A DNA stretch of 39,438 bases from assembly GCF_003334335.1 (NCBI RefSeq), contig NZ_QOWQ01000041.1. One strand, given 5' to 3'. Shown here piece after piece: positions 1 through 23,987 of the stretch. The translations under genes and the position numbers were made by a program. The DNA is from Escherichia coli (GTDB lineage: Bacteria > Pseudomonadota > Gammaproteobacteria > Enterobacterales > Enterobacteriaceae). How positions within the stretch are numbered: the first letter of the stretch is position 1; each line of letters begins with the position of its first letter. The notes under the pieces were generated by a model. It worked only from the letters and a program-made list of their open reading frames with translations, ran no database searches and was not told the DNA's origin.

Positions 1-468
1 AGTACGGATTTGGGGACGAAAAACACATCGTCGTTTGATTACGGAACCAAATCCACGAATAACACCGGGGCGCATACGCACAGTCTGAGTGGCTCTACGG
101 GGTCTGCCGGTGATCATACTCATGGTAATGGTATTCGTTGGCCAGGAGGCGGCGGTTCTGCGTTAGCATTTTATGATGGCGGTGGGTTCACTTATGTCCA
201 GGATTCACAGTATCAAGTAAGCCCGGGGACTTCTTCCCGTAGATCGTATTATCAACGTATTCAGACACAGTCAGCAGGTGCTCATACCCACTCGCTGTCT
301 GGTACTGCAGCAAGTTCTGGCGCACATGCACATACTGTAGGTATTGGTGCGCATACGCACTCCGTTGCGATTGGTTCACATGGACACACCATCACCGTTA
401 ACGCTGCTGGTAACGCGGAAAACACCGTCAAAAACATCGCATTTAACTATATTGTGAGGCTTGCATAA
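1..468 (+). CDS. stf: Phage side tail fibre protein, C-terminal portion (5' end cut by window edge)
   Basis: Reading frame is open back to nt 1 (no stop before the ATG at 10). Repeated GAHTHSLSG / HxH motifs and the C-terminal ...[24 protein letters not shown] match the lambda Stf-type fibre tip. Directly followed by tfa. Confidence 0.85.
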
Positions 469-1052
469 TGGCATTCAGAATGAGTGAACAACCACGGACC
501 ATAAAAATTTATAATCTGCTGGCCGGAACTAATGAATTTATTGGTGAAGGTGACGCATATATTCCGCCTCATACAGGTCTGCCAGCAAACAGTACCGATA
601 TTGCACCACCAGATATTCCTGCTGGCTTTGTGGCTGTTTTCAACAGTGATGAGGCATCGTGGCATCTCGTTGAAGACCATCGGGGTAAAACGGTTTATGA
701 CGTAGCGTCAGGGGACGAGTTATTTATTTCTGAACTCGGTCCGTTACCGGAAAATGTTACCTGGTTATCGCCGGAAGGGGAGTTTCAGAAGTGGAACGGC
801 ACAGCCTGGGTGAAGGATACGGAAGCAGAAAAAATGTTCCGGATCCGGGAGGCGGAAGAAACAAAAAACAACCTGATGCAGGTAGCCAGTGAGCATATTG
901 CGCCGCTTCAGGATGCTGCAGATCTGGAAATTGCAACGGAGGAAGAAACCTCATTGCTGGAAGCCTGGAAAAAGTATCGGGTGTTGCTGAACCGTGTTGA
1001 TACATCAACTGCACCTGATATTGAGTGGCCTACGAACCCTGTCAGGGAGTAA
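468..1052 (+). CDS. tfa: Tail fibre assembly protein (lambda Tfa-like chaperone)
   Basis: 194-aa ORF; [54 protein letters not shown]... is near-identical to lambda Tfa as I recall it. ATG overlaps the stf stop (TAATG), suggesting translational coupling. Confidence 0.9.
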
Positions 1053-1101
1053 TCATTGGGATTATGCCGCAGCACGTCTTAAGCAAGAACGTGCTGCGGT
1101 T
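888..1101 (+). repeat. Direct repeat copy A (tfa 3' end plus downstream hairpin)
   Basis: About 214 bp, roughly 85-90% identical by eye to 1937-2150, same orientation. Confidence 0.8.
1067..1099. terminator. Hairpin between convergent tfa and methyltransferase genes
   Basis: Perfect 11-bp stem ccgcagcacgt / acgtgctgcgg with an 11-nt loop. A T-run follows on the + strand after about 10 nt (tattttttcc), so intrinsic-terminator function is plausible but not classic. Confidence 0.5.
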
Positions 1102-1106
1102 GGATG

Positions 1107-1775
1107 CTATTTTTTCCCTGAAGCGGAAAACATTACTACAGTACCTTGAACCTTGGTTTTAACATTCTCGAAATGCTCTGAGAGTATATGTGTTAAGCCT
1201 TCTTCGGAATCTTTTGTGTTTGAAAAGATGCCTTTCTGATTGTAAATGCGCATCAGTTTTTGACCGAAGCTATTGTGCACAACTCCATCGCCAAGAATTG
1301 TGGCTCCGTATAGAGTTCCATCGTCAGTTAAGGCCTGCGCCGCATTGCGTATTACACAGCTTTTTGTAGATATATTTCCAGGCAGGCAGTGAAGAAGGTA
1401 AAACATGGAAATGGAATCAAATTGACCATGTAACGCCGCGGGATAAGGTTCAAAAACATCATGGCTAATTTTATGTTTAATTTTTGATTCCCCAGCCCTT
1501 GTAGATGCCGCGTTCAGGCTAGCTTCGTTCAAATCCATTAAAGATATCAGACTACTCTCAGGTACGTGAGTAAGGTAAAACCCAGTTCCAACACCAATAT
1601 CCAGATGGTTGTTACCTACATGTTCCAGATAGTGTGGAAGAAGGTGTTCCTTTGTAGGACATCCCCATGCAAGCCGATTTGATACTCCCAAAACCCACCA
1701 GTCATAAAGCTTTAGGGTAAGTGGTGTGTAAATTTTAGCCCCATCATCTGTGTTTTTTTTCATTGATTTCACCAT
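1107..1775 (-). CDS. Class I SAM-dependent methyltransferase-like protein (prophage cargo, substrate unknown)
   Basis: 222-aa ORF with a glycine-rich motif I (LDIGVGTGFY) followed by acidic/hydrophobic motifs (SISMFYLLHCLPG, LTDDGTLYGATILG) typical of the Rossmann-fold MTase superfamily. No DPPY/NPPY or PCQ DNA-MTase motif. Looks AT-richer than the core genes. Start may be the first ATG or the MKKNT ATG. Confidence 0.65.
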   Translation of the reverse strand: MVKSMKKNTDDGAKIYTPLTLKLYDWWVLGVSNRLAWGCPTKEHLLPHYLEHVGNNHLDIGVGTGFYLTHVPESSLISLMDLNEASLNAASTRAGESKIKHKISHDVFEPYPAALHGQFDSISMFYLLHCLPGNISTKSCVIRNAAQALTDDGTLYGATILGDGVVHNSFGQKLMRIYNQKGIFSNTKDSEEGLTHILSEHFENVKTKVQGTVVMFSASGKK

Positions 1776-1936
1776 GTTATAGTTTTATTTGTGAATTAAA
1801 TCAATTATGGCGATGAATTACAAGGGGTTAAATGCTGCCGCAGCATAGCGATATTGAAATAGCCTGGTATGCTTCGATACAGCAGGAGACGAATGGCTGG
1901 AAGACCGTCACCACACAGTTCTACATCCAGGAATTC

Positions 1937-2100
1937 AGTGAGTATATTGCGCCACTGCAGGATGCTGTAGATCTGGAAATCGCAACGGAGGAAGAAAGAT
2001 CGTTGCTGGAGGCATGGAATAAATATCGGGTATTGTTGAATCGTGTTGATACATCAACTGCACCGATATTGAGTGGCCTGCAAATCCTGTCAGGGAGTAA
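1937..2100 (+). pseudogene. Tail fibre assembly gene 3' remnant with frameshift
   Basis: Encodes ...[43 protein letters not shown], homologous to the Tfa C-terminus. A 1-nt deletion (cacctgat to caccgat) shifts the frame before the conserved DIEWP end. No N-terminal tfa sequence upstream. Confidence 0.8.
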
Positions 2101-2150
2101 TCATTGGGATTATGCCGCAGACACGTCGTATGCAGGAACGTGCTGCGGTT
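1937..2150 (+). repeat. Direct repeat copy B (degraded tfa 3' end plus hairpin)
   Basis: Matches 888-1101; hairpin stem retained with mismatches. Confidence 0.8.
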
Positions 2151-2214
2151 AGTTTGTAAGCTTTCGATAGTGGTTGTTATTTTTGCCCTTATTTGTTCCG
2201 GAGGCCATGGTTCA

Positions 2215-2385
2215 ATGGTCCGTCTGCCCCCTGTGGTGATGTCAGCAAAATCAGCCACTGCGCGAACCACAATAGCCCGGGAAGATGCTGAAGATCACCA
2301 GGTAAAGCTGTCAGCGCAGAAACTGGAAGAACTGCTCGCATCAATGGTTAAGGATGAGGTTGATCGCAATGATGGGATTTATTGA
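2215..2385 (+). CDS. Hypothetical small protein (57 aa) in prophage terminal region
   Basis: ATG at 2215 preceded by GGAGG about 10 nt upstream; a T-run lies about 90 nt downstream (2478-2486). No recognisable motif; coding status uncertain. Confidence 0.3.
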   Translation: MVRLPPVVMSAKSATARTTIAREDAEDHQVKLSAQKLEELLASMVKDEVDRNDGIY

Positions 2386-2698
2386 CGTCAGCGAGAGCAG
2401 AAGGAAGAACTGAATAACCTGAATGATTTACGCTCAATCAGAGCGATGATGATTGGCAGTAATTAGCGGTCAATTTCGGTTTTTTTGGCTGTGCGCTCCC
2501 CGCCCAGCATTGCGCGTCAATTAGCCCCCAAAAAAACGAAAAAGTTACAATCAAGTAAAAAATTCCTTCTGCAAAACTAAAAAAGATTTCAATAAAATCA
2601 GACAGTTAAAAACATAAAAAAAGGTACAAAAAAAACATCTCAAAGTCTTGTTTTTTGCTTCAAATACAATTGGTTATTGTGTTTTTTGAAACCTACCA

Positions 2699-2815
2699 GT
2701 GTGGTACATGGATATCGATACCACCGCCAATTATAAGCTGGGCGGTGCACAGCAACACGATAGCGTACGCCTCGATCCGTGGGTGTTTATGTTCTCAGCA
2801 GGATATCGTTTTTAA
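2699..2815 (+). pseudogene. ompW: ompW 3' remnant (last ~38 codons), 5' part displaced by prophage
   Basis: Frame gives VWYMDIDTTANYKLGGAQQHDSVRLDPWVFMFSAGYRF-stop, matching the OmpW C-terminus as I recall it. Upstream sequence in this frame hits a stop and does not resemble ompW. Sits about 60 bp from the convergent yciE end, as in K-12. Confidence 0.85.
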
Positions 2816-2829
2816 TTCCGCACAAAAAC

Positions 2830-2850
2830 GACCCCGTAATATACGGGGTC
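2830..2850. terminator. Intrinsic terminator of the yciGFE operon (shared with ompW remnant)
   Basis: Stem gaccccgt / acggggtc, 5-nt loop; on the - strand it is followed by GTTTTTGTG. Confidence 0.7.
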
Positions 2851-2874
2851 AATAAGGACATGGTATAAAGGGTA

Positions 2875-3381
2875 TTATTTCTTCGCTTCTACGCCATCAG
2901 TTTCAGAGCGAATTAAAAATTTCTCAGTTGTTTGCGGAATATTCTGAATCAGCCAGTCGGCCATTTGCTTTTCCTCATTTAAAATCGCTTCGATGGTTGG
3001 AATTGAAGCTGTATCACCGGCATTTTTTGCTGCTGCTAATAGTGAGGTGTAACAGGCGATTTCAAATTGCTCGAAGACATATCCGCTAATAGAGCCTTTG
3101 ACTATTTCATCAGAAGGGAATATACCACCGATTGACTGCCCAAGCGCAGCCATTTTACTCATGGAATCTTTAATGACTGAACGTGAAATGTCATTACGAT
3201 CAAGAATAGTTTCCAGTTGAACAATCTGGTTTTTGGTTTCACTAAGATGTTGTTCAATACGAGCGCGTAGTTCAGGATAATTATCTATACGGCTGGCCAT
3301 GGATTCAAGCATAGATTCGGCTTGCTTTTCCATTGCGTGGGCGTCACGTAACCAGTCATGATAATGTTCAATACGATTCAT
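2875..3381 (-). CDS. yciE: Ferritin-like DUF892 stress protein YciE
   Basis: 168 aa, MNRIEHYHDWLRDAHAMEKQAE... recognised as E. coli YciE. Confidence 0.93.
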   Translation of the reverse strand: MNRIEHYHDWLRDAHAMEKQAESMLESMASRIDNYPELRARIEQHLSETKNQIVQLETILDRNDISRSVIKDSMSKMAALGQSIGGIFPSDEIVKGSISGYVFEQFEIACYTSLLAAAKNAGDTASIPTIEAILNEEKQMADWLIQNIPQTTEKFLIRSETDGVEAKK

Positions 3382-3426
3382 GAAAATGTCCTCTTTATAA
3401 AATGACTAAAAGTTAAAATTCATATT

Positions 3427-3927
3427 TCAGGCTTTATTTTCGGCTTTCTTATTTACGTTATTAATGGCCAGATCAGTCAGTTTGATGTCGGTGGCCTTTT
3501 CTTCTTCCAGGGTTTCTTTCAGAAGCTTCGCTGCTTTACGGTAACCTAATTGTTCAGCCAGCGTCGCTAATGTCCCGTAACTGGCAATCTCATAATGCTC
3601 GACTTTCTGTGCTGCGGCAATCAGTGCGGCATCACGCACTTCGTTTTTCTCGGTACTTTCGATGACCTCATTAGCTTCTTCAATAAGACCTTCCATTGCC
3701 ACACATTTCATGCGCTTAATTTTCAGGTTCGATTCGGACTCCACAACTTGATCAATACGTTCAATCTGTCCATGAGTTTCCTCGAGGTGCGCATGAAAAG
3801 CCTGACTTAATTTTTCATTTGATGTTGCTCTTGCGAGTTTTGCCAGTGCCCGGGTTAATTGTTTTTCTGCGCTGTAGGTATCTGAAAGCAGGTGAATAAA
3901 TACATCTTCAATGGTCTTCATATTCAT
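3427..3927 (-). CDS. yciF: Ferritin-like stress protein YciF
   Basis: Recognised YciF sequence starting MNMKTIEDVF...; start moved to the ATG with a GGAG Shine-Dalgarno (track ORF extends 16 codons further upstream). Confidence 0.9.
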   Translation of the reverse strand: MNMKTIEDVFIHLLSDTYSAEKQLTRALAKLARATSNEKLSQAFHAHLEETHGQIERIDQVVESESNLKIKRMKCVAMEGLIEEANEVIESTEKNEVRDAALIAAAQKVEHYEIASYGTLATLAEQLGYRKAAKLLKETLEEEKATDIKLTDLAINNVNKKAENKA

Positions 3928-4012
3928 ATTTTTCTCCAGTGAAATCACTGCGAGCCATACGGCCCGCAGATGCAATTATCTTTATCAGCTGATATTAATA
4001 ATTAACGGTGAA

Positions 4013-4192
4013 TCAGGATTTGCCTGATTTATTACCACCGCTTTGTTGACCGCCTTTTTTACCCGCTTCAGATGCGCGTTGCGGATCATTTTTAAAATTA
4101 CCGCCGCTATGCTGACCGCCTTTACGGCCTGCGTCGGATGCCTTCTCACGGTCTTCGGCGAAATTTCCTGAACCACCACGATGTTCGGCCAT
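4013..4192 (-). CDS. yciG: KGG-repeat general stress protein YciG
   Basis: 59 aa, MAEHRGGSGNFAEDREKASDAGRKGG... with repeated KGGQ(H/Q)SGGN motifs; GGGAGA Shine-Dalgarno upstream of the ATG at 4192. Confidence 0.88.
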   Translation of the reverse strand: MAEHRGGSGNFAEDREKASDAGRKGGQHSGGNFKNDPQRASEAGKKGGQQSGGNKSGKS

Positions 4193-4544
4193 GTTATTTC
4201 TCCCGTTGCGTTGCATTGTTTCATTAATATGAGTGTTGTGTGTCGACACTCATTAAAATTAGTCGCTAATGAGAATTAGTCAAATTAAGCGCAACGAGAA
4301 GATAGAGGGAAAATATATTTTGAGGAACATTCTGGATATATTAACAATTACCTGAGGAATAAGTGACTTAGAGAAAATTATTGATTTTACTGGTGTTATG
4401 TTGCGGGATTAATTTGTTTGATTATATTACTGTTGGGCGGAAAAATGACGTAAGTTGACGTTCGACCGGGGTAAGCGAAACGGTAAAAAGATAAATATTA
4501 AATGAATTTAGGATTTTTCCGGCTTCATTAAAGAAAGTTAAAAT

Positions 4545-4565
4545 GCCGCCAGCGGAACTGGCGGC
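4545..4565. terminator. trp operon terminator (trp t)
   Basis: Stem gccgccag / ctggcggc, 5-nt loop; on the - strand followed by ATTTT immediately after the trpA stop. Confidence 0.8.
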
Positions 4566-4572
4566 TGTGGGA

Positions 4573-5379
4573 TTAACTGCGCGTCGCCGCTTTCATCGGT
4601 TGTACAAAAACTTTCAGTGCCGCCAGCATTTTCTCTGGCTCATTAATATGTTGCTCGATGATTTTAACAATGGCCGAACCAGAAATCGCGCCCGCAGCTC
4701 CTGCATCAATCGCTGCTTTTACCTGATCCGGGGCGGAAATACCAAATCCCTGCAATGGAGGTGCAGCGTTGTACTCTTTCAGCTTCGCAACCAGATGATT
4801 GAGGGGTAACGCGGCGCGGTTTTCTGCGCCGGTCACGCCTGCTCGTGACAGCAAATAGGTGTAACCACGACCGTAAGAGGCTATCTGGCGCAGCAGGTCG
4901 TCATCGGCATTTGGCGGGCAGATGAAGATAGGTGCGACATTATGACGCAACGCGGCCTGGCGGAAGGGCGCGGACTCTTCAACTGGCACATCGGCAACCA
5001 GCACCGAATCGACGCCGACTTTTTCGCACTGGGCATAAAACTCATCAATGCCTTTGTTAAACACCAGATTGGCATACATCAACAGGCCAATGGGAATGGT
5101 CGGGTGTTTCTGGCGAATCAGTGCCAGCATTTCAAAACATTGTGCCGGAGTCACACCTGCCGCAAAGGCGCGCAGAGTGGCGTTTTGAATCGTCGGGCCA
5201 TCCGCCAGTGGGTCGGAGAAGGGGATACCTAACTCCAGCGCGTCAGCACCGGCTTCAATTAGCGTATCGATAATTTTCAATGACTGCTCAATGCCCGGAT
5301 CACCGAGCGTGACGAAAGGAACGAATGCGCCTTCTTTGCGCTCCTTCAACTGGGCAAACAGAGATTCGTAGCGTTCCAT
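4573..5379 (-). CDS. trpA: Tryptophan synthase alpha chain
   Basis: 268 aa, [29 protein letters not shown]...; start overlaps the trpB stop. Confidence 0.97.
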
Positions 5380-11123: not shown

Positions 11124-11153
11124 CAAAAAAAAGCCCGCTCATTAGGCGGGCTG
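11124..11153 (-). terminator. trp attenuator (leader terminator 3:4 hairpin plus U-tract)
   Basis: - strand reads agcccgcctaatgagcgggct followed by TTTTTTTT, between trpL and trpE. Confidence 0.9.
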
Positions 11154-11194
11154 GGTATCTGATTGCTTTACGCATGGTGAATACACTGCCCGTT

Positions 11195-11239
11195 TCAGGA
11201 AGTGCGCCACCAACCTTTCAGTACGAAAATTGCTTTCAT
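11195..11239 (-). CDS. trpL: trp operon leader peptide
   Basis: - strand ATG AAA GCA ATT TTC GTA CTG AAA GGT TGG TGG CGC ACT TCC TGA = [14 protein letters not shown] with tandem Trp codons. Confidence 0.92.
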
Positions 11240-23615: not shown

Positions 23616-23987
23616 TTATCATCATTCTTATTACCCATTTTTAATGAATTAAAGGGCTTTTAATACACCGCAGCAATAACAGCTTGAGTTATCTCAACAC
23701 AAAATAATAACCGTTAAGGGTGTAGCCTATGATCAACACAAATATGAAATATTGGTCCTGGATGGGCGCGTTTTCTCTGTCGATGCTCTTCTGGGCCGAA
23801 CTCCTCTGGATCATTACTCACTGATCCTTGACCCCGCTGCGGCGGGGTTGTCATTTGCTTTGCCACAAGGTTTCTCCTCTTTTATCAATTTGGGTTGTTA
23901 TCAAATCGTTACGCGATGTTTGTGTTATCTTTAATATTCACCCTGAAGAGAATCAGGGCTTCGCAACCCTGTCATTAAGGAGGAGCT

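Follow-up and report, generated by a model that had tools for sequence, protein, structure and literature searches.

The segment at positions 1925–2100 of the window, by which we mean the whole 39,438-nucleotide stretch of Escherichia coli DNA analysed here, is with high probability a non-functional 3′ fragment of a lambda-type tfa (tail fibre assembly) gene, a relic of the K-12 tfaX type, with the history proposed below. The relic is already known, being present in the K-12 reference genome, annotated by RefSeq and widespread, and the frameshift that it carries here is a minor late addition. At a coverage of at least 80%, the 421-nt stretch used for genome comparison was found in 1684 of 5426 complete E. 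coli genomes.

The window begins within a lambdoid prophage inserted in ompW, at its right end (Table 1), and the genes yciE, yciF, yciG and trpA follow beyond the ompW fragment. Chromosomal RNA elements were identified farther along, the trp operon leader at 11125–11218 (93 bits) and the small RNA STnc180 at 23656–23858 (198 bits). The DNA between 331 and 1101 is 92.6% identical to stf–tfa of lambda. In RefSeq, the stf-equivalent DNA is named either 'prophage tail fiber N-terminal domain-containing protein' or 'phage tail protein'. Residues 1–192 of the intact tfa product match phrog_105 ('tail fiber assembly'; E 2e-100), and the methyltransferase matches phrog_2132 (E 1e-156). RefSeq also places a 45-aa 'hypothetical protein' (WP_001309429.1) at 1025–1162, overlapping the tfa stop codon, the hairpin and the 3′ end of the methyltransferase gene; this is likely not a real gene. 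The best-matching complete genome was that of strain B-1109 (99.9% identity over 2900 nt), which carries an intact ompW at the opposite prophage end. Its ompW prophage is a 28.8-kb defective element without head or tail genes. In this strain (locus L009, 3019–4649), a small terminase gene lacking its C-terminal part lies directly against an stf without its N-terminal part, indicating that all the head and tail genes were deleted.

Table 1. Features at the right prophage end, in window coordinates
Feature	Position	Strand	Basis or remark
stf 3′ end	1–468	+	truncated by window start; ORF 10–468, His/Gly-rich repeats
Intact tfa, 194 aa, lambda-type tail fibre assembly protein	468–1052	+	RefSeq WP_000885580.1
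Repeat copy 1 (last 58 tfa codons and about 60 nt 3′ of the stop)	876–1116	+	repeat search
G+C-rich hairpin between convergent tfa and methyltransferase genes	1066–1100		fold −28.6 kcal/mol, z −3.7
Class I SAM-dependent methyltransferase, 222 aa, K-12 ybcY homologue, cargo gene	1107–1775	−	RefSeq WP_000240999.1
Spacer 'X' upstream of methyltransferase	1776–1924		gives ATG (1832) and first 31 codons of chimeric ORF
Truncated tfa, tfaX-type relic	1925–2100	+	C-terminal helical domain only; T missing between 2064 and 2065
Chimeric 106-aa ORF	1832–2152	+	spacer-derived start, tfa fragment, out-of-frame tail
Hairpin copy 2, then short lambda b-region-like block up to 2172	2114–2148		lambda comparison
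Second relic, DUF4376 gene 3′ end with internal stop	2197–2466	+	protein match; RefSeq pseudogene note
ompW 3′ fragment, right prophage/chromosome junction	about 2690–2815	+	RefSeq 'OmpW family ... missing N-terminus'

By BLASTN of 1776–2200 against the window, 1925–2150 was aligned with 876–1101 over 227 columns, with 88.1% identity, two gaps and an E value of 6e-78. The second copy of the tfa 3′ end claimed in an earlier note on this DNA, as 888–1101 against 1937–2150, was thus correctly placed to within 12 nt. A repeat search divided the similarity into three blocks, 876–1015 with 1925–2064 (86%), 1017–1072 with 2065–2120 (95%) and 1073–1116 with 2122–2165 (77%). The longest uninterrupted identity between the copies is 35 nt (1038–1072 with 2086–2120). 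As the similarity extends about 50 to 65 nt past the tfa stop codon and takes in the 35-nt G+C-rich hairpin, it indicates duplication at the DNA level, more than a common protein motif. The first of the two gaps is the absence of one T between 2064 and 2065 (CACC joined to GATATT, against CACCTGATATT). The frame is shifted at the D of the conserved DIEWP motif and reading continues to 2152, at the cost of the last 11 residues, DIEWP included; an 89-aa ORF is obtained when the T is restored. The second gap represents an extra A at 2121 within the hairpin, which is shared by the distal hairpin of lambda and is therefore a feature of the allele and not a lesion.

Sequencing error as the cause of the missing T was ruled out, because the identical deletion recurs in the 25 complete E. 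coli genomes that match best (match length 421). The T is kept in strain 120899 and ST131-type genomes (match length 422), which are otherwise almost identical, and was present in the sampled ranks of genome matches from about 77 onward, ST131 strains included. From these ranked match lists, the deletion allele is bracketed at about 25 to 76 of the 5426 genomes. The T deletion is a rare and recent change in a few dozen genomes, a late event separate from the truncation.

After correction of the frame, residues 31–86 of the ORF correspond to positions 75–130 of the 131-position Caudo_TAP model (Pfam search, E 5e-25). The C-terminal 56 of the 131 positions are left and positions 1–74 are gone, in agreement with the missing N-terminus described in the earlier note. 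The relic cannot be counted as a full-length member of Caudo_TAP (PF02413), as its N-terminal fibre-binding part is absent; its reading is broken before the conserved C-terminal DIEWP; and it follows the opposite-strand methyltransferase gene, while the place directly behind the tail fibre gene is held by the intact tfa. The relic is not without an ORF, since it lies inside the chimeric 106-aa frame. For the first 31 codons of this frame, which derive from the spacer upstream of the methyltransferase, no Tfa match was obtained. Among PHROG families, the 106-aa ORF covers positions 1–79 of phrog_2341 (88 positions, unknown function) and the corrected 89-aa form covers positions 1–88 (E 4e-60). 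No named family was found in NCBIfam for either tfa or the relic. On identical DNA, RefSeq gives 'tail fiber assembly protein; frameshifted; incomplete; missing N-terminus'.

The possibility that the second copy belongs to an intact ORF in another frame, raised in the earlier note, found no support. The antisense frame 1935–2270 (111 aa) belongs to no PHROG family, and the ORF 2104–2385 matches only the DUF4376 relic, in its second half. In some genomes the RefSeq annotation includes a partial 'DinI family protein' pseudogene at 1850–1930, minus strand, a call that is missing where a single base is different (1889 A/C). The segment gave no Pfam match at E 10, no NCBIfam match and no BLASTP alignment to the DinI-like protein of strain VL40; the call is probably spurious, and the spacer was treated as non-coding. 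The Rfam model IS009 (RF02111, candidate sRNA) matches 811–1009 in the 3′ coding part of the intact tfa with 223.8 bits, and K-12 tfaD and tfaX score 227.8 and 110 bits, respectively. The relic (1855–2058) scores 112.3 bits, under the gathering threshold of 117, and is not a member. What IS009 models appears to be the coding sequence of tfa and not a gene for an RNA.

The closest known system is the cryptic prophage DLP12 of K-12, in which tfaD (b0561), ybcY (b0562) and tfaX (b0563) have the same order and orientation as tfa, minus-strand methyltransferase and truncated tfa of the window; 614–2077 is collinear with this region at 96.8% DNA identity. K-12 TfaX (61 aa) has the same chimeric start and the same truncation point, and the first 61 residues of the corrected ORF are those of TfaX apart from T20P. 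Two features place the relic in the tfaX type, an N-terminus derived from the ybcY spacer and joined to about codon 140 of tfa, and a divergent neighbour that is a ybcY-type class I SAM methyltransferase. The two copies differ in their lesions, as K-12 tfaX is stopped at residue 62, where TGG has become TGA, whereas the window copy carries the 1-nt deletion. From window position 2011 on, K-12 tfaX represents a different tfa allele. Downstream, appY–ompT follows in K-12, whereas the hairpin, the DUF4376 relic and the ompW attachment junction follow in the window. The methyltransferase ORF is intact in the window, whereas K-12 ybcY is a pseudogene. In the current RefSeq annotation of K-12, tfaX is entered as a CDS ('protein TfaX').

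The two tfa 3′ ends of the window are direct repeats 1049 nt apart, an arrangement that a local tandem duplication within this prophage, followed by decay, would also leave. This origin is extremely unlikely. A comparison of intact tfa and relic over 54 codons gave 18 differences, of which 13 fall on third codon positions, with dS of 0.44 and dN/dS of 0.10. Such an excess at third positions together with a low dN/dS indicates two alleles that diverged under selection while both were working genes, and not duplication in place followed by decay. Furthermore, only 4 of the 162 compared 3′-end positions distinguish the adjacent tfa from K-12 tfaD, against 18 that distinguish it from the relic, and unrelated cargo DNA lies in between. 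The view of the earlier note that the relic comes from a different tfa allele is borne out by these counts. The changes specific to the relic (4 nonsynonymous and 5 synonymous) are too few for a test of neutrality. The relic is 85% identical to lambda tfa at the DNA level. In the phage collection, the best intact tfa was 89.3% identical to the relic, and no full-length parental allele was found there. Among the best 120 of 706 protein matches, the signature Y, R and N (SEY..EEER..AWNK) was confined to relic copies that have the chimeric start, and was carried by none of the long Tfa proteins.

The joint between methyltransferase, spacer and tfa from about codon 140 (window 1776 to about 1943) is 98–100% identical in K-12, VL40, 2G7b and PhiR68_2. 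The left neighbours of this shared joint vary among intact tfa, pin–ynaE, ipaH, truncated tfa and P2 gpD, and the tail-fibre genes to its left are different or absent in these settings. In K-12 it is located in DLP12, at another chromosomal site; in phage 2G7b, a non-lambda tail fibre and another truncated tfa stand on its left; in the yehV-site prophage of VL40, a DUF4376 gene and ipaH do so; and in PhiR68_2 and Kati, pin and ynaE lie between tfa and methyltransferase. The joint was also found in a P2-like prophage adjoining smpB. In this prophage (loci L010–L013, e.g. CP058571.1 1169290–1177559), which carries baseplate J, P2 gpI and a P2-type fibre as markers, tfa, methyltransferase, the 89-aa relic and DinI stand at the end, indicating that the cassette crosses phage families. 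For phage ev243 the same methyltransferase/tail-fibre-assembly pair is listed, and its joint was left out of the alignment.

Phage Ayreon has both flanks of the cassette without window 1143–1801, which holds the methyltransferase. At locus L007 (2769–3117), the 3′ end of a truncated tfa and the hairpin are followed by the final 36 nt of the methyltransferase gene, and these by the spacer. In Ayreon, the cargo gene has been cleanly deleted from within the cassette. The palindrome AACCTTGGTT at 1149–1158, inside the 3′ end of the methyltransferase gene, adjoins the left end of the Ayreon deletion. We take it to resemble the core of crossover sites of the Hin/Gin family, to which the flanking half-sites match poorly, and this likeness is probably due to chance. 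The spacer similarity with Ayreon ends at 1918, just before the start of tfa homology at 1925. The shared joint and the Ayreon boundary together point to an illegitimate joint at 1919–1925 with a single origin, a claim based on about ten loci inspected by hand rather than on a full phylogeny. The presence of the same joint in so many settings indicates that the truncation is old and was inherited together with the methyltransferase cassette.

These observations bear on the reading of the earlier note, in which the fragment is the former tfa of this very ompW prophage, cut when the present stf–tfa–methyltransferase module recombined in. The kind of event was correctly seen, but its time and place were not; a recombination that fuses the left arm of one phage to an internal point of the tfa of another would leave a structure of such a shape. 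The relic allele does differ from the adjacent tfa, and the left block can move relative to the right half of the relic, as 1001–1831 (tfa 3′ end, hairpin, methyltransferase and non-coding part of the spacer) is 96–100% identical between this lambdoid prophage and the P2-like one, in which the relic is only 84–86% identical. A second relic of a tail-fibre-accessory gene lies close downstream; it corresponds to the C-terminal 89 codons of a DUF4376 gene and is 61% identical over 84 aa (E 1e-31) to the intact DUF4376 protein of VL40, the gene for which occupies the tfa slot behind the tail fibre gene. Two 3′ ends of tail-fibre-accessory genes are thus stacked ahead of the attachment junction, and the DUF4376 relic fits repeated replacement at this prophage end. 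Against a swap at this locus, however, the same joint in DLP12, in free phages, at the yehV site and in the P2-like prophage makes the cut older than this prophage, and a full-length tfa of the relic allele or a long Tfa with the Y/R/N signature did not appear in the searches described above. The relic is therefore very unlikely to be the own former tfa of this prophage, and we favour an old tfaX-type relic that arrived with the cassette.

Up to position 2010, K-12 tfaX is the same as the window copy except at two sites, and then 17 differences follow within 50 nt. The VL40 relic changes allele at about 1943 and ends with ...DIEWPEEPDTM, and 2G7b and many O157 genomes have another junction after 2056. 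The P2-like copy is 98–100% identical to the window in the tfa 3′ end, the methyltransferase and the non-coding spacer, and 96% in the hairpin spacer. This mosaic right half would represent the traces of homologous crossovers in the conserved tfa 3′ end, as we infer from the allele pattern. The conservation of the Tfa C-terminal domain across alleles is probably the reason why its DNA serves for such crossovers. Lesions differ between lineages: the window copy has lost the T, K-12 and PhiR68_2 have TGA in place of TGG, and 2G7b has lost 7 nt. The protein collection contains other frameshifted forms, with lengths of 105–108 aa. In the 31 spacer-derived codons, 6 nonsynonymous and 2 synonymous differences separate the window from the P2-like copy, close to the neutral expectation, and by this count the codons appear to be free of selection.

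Most of the copies in E. coli genomes retain the open 89-aa frame, which counts against the relic reading. The undeleted 89-aa TfaX might then be a functional paralogue consisting of the trimerisation domain only and expressed from a divergent promoter, with the window copy as a knocked-out allele. The frame is also open in P0023, a copy 82% identical, and has a PHROG family of its own. A promoter-like sequence was found on the minus strand at 1831–1804, the number of such matches being not above that in shuffled sequences, and the spacer probably holds a divergent promoter region. For the K-12 ybcY/tfaX spacer, a site for the RpoD (sigma-70) holoenzyme and H-NS has been reported by SELEX (PMC3946193). 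Transcription of the relic is thus possible, without any sign of a role for a product, and a small product may be expressed from the 89-aa frame. A functional paralogue is nevertheless very improbable. The frame has been disrupted several times independently, K-12 included, and the 6 nonsynonymous to 2 synonymous changes in its spacer-derived N-terminal codons speak against a maintained protein. The low dN/dS of the tfa part needs no function, since it is accounted for by patches imported from functional tfa alleles. In Tfa, the variable N-terminal domain binds the fibre and the conserved C-terminal helical domain trimerises (PMC9608196). The relic lacks the fibre-binding domain, and therefore cannot chaperone a fibre.

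Hairpin copy 2 is identical at 35 of 35 nt to the lambda copy located upstream of ea47, and window 2114–2172 is 88% identical to lambda. In lambda, hairpin copies are located at 3197–3231 and 4787–4821 of the locus analysed (L004), and the tfa-proximal one differs by a compensatory C–G to A–T change. The lambda b region has the order tfa, hairpin, ea47 (minus strand) and hairpin, so that ea47 occupies the same slot as the methyltransferase here. Unlike in the window, no tfa coding fragment precedes the distal hairpin of lambda. The hairpin is found again at the borders of the cargo in lambda, PhiR68_2, 2G7b and K-12, and in PhiR68_2 it stands at the 3′ end of ybcY without a preceding tfa. Its role may be that of a terminator or of a boundary favoured in recombination; in the copy at 1066–1100, the methyltransferase strand shows no clear run of T.

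Morons and mosaic module boundaries are a general concept for lambdoid phages, established from comparisons such as that of HK97 and HK022. The present region resembles them in having opposite-strand cargo between the late genes and the attachment site and conserved boundaries that recombine; a promoter-like region and a hairpin are candidates for the promoter and terminator that an autonomous cargo cassette would have of its own. Unlike the short linker of morons, the boundary here is a duplicated tfa 3′ end, a piece of a structural-accessory gene.

The serine recombinase of the PinQ/PinR type between tfa and methyltransferase in PhiR68_2 and Kati recalls the invertible tail-fibre segments of the Gin/Cin/Pin type, of which the second tfa might be a remnant, as the gene for an alternative chaperone. 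There is almost no likelihood of this, as the repeats are direct and not inverted, the fragment is not accompanied by an alternative stf 3′ end, and window 1–5000 contains no recombinase ORF; no flanking inverted repeats were found, the sole inverted repeat found in 1–5000 (4359–4378 with 4628–4647) being unrelated. The segment is accordingly not a member of this class.

As the best explanation for the relic of the tfaX type, we propose that one old illegitimate recombination fused a tfa gene, at about its codon 140, to the spacer that precedes a ybcY-type methyltransferase gene. The product would have been the unit that is observed at present, namely tfa 3′ end, hairpin, minus-strand methyltransferase, spacer and truncated tfa, often followed by a second hairpin, with its two tfa 3′ ends as direct repeats. 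This unit would then have spread through lambdoid and P2-like prophages, and crossovers in the tfa 3′ end would repeatedly have re-patched the right half of the relic and altered the downstream DNA, in line with the mosaic pattern. Being the conserved C-terminal helical domain alone, the fragment can take no part in fibre chaperoning, and it has decayed by lineage-specific lesions, of which the recent 1-nt deletion is the one present here.

Two further ideas, reaching beyond the present data, have a slim chance of being correct. The tfa 3′ end with its hairpin, present on either side of the cargo slot, could form a dedicated cassette for cargo exchange; if so, cargo such as the ybcY methyltransferase, ea47, ipaH and others would hop between lambdoid and P2-like phages by homologous recombination. 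Or the 89-aa TfaX could interfere with Tfa; if so, it would be a trimerisation-domain-only protein acting against the Tfa of a resident or superinfecting phage.

By itself the relic matters little, and represents a textbook case of phage mosaicism. Its constant joint, however, marks a single origin and the spread of the ybcY-type methyltransferase cassette through lambdoid and P2-like prophages, and its mosaic right half marks the conserved tfa 3′ end as a site where crossovers are frequent. Within E. coli, a small set of genomes could be recognised as a lineage by the 1-nt deletion.
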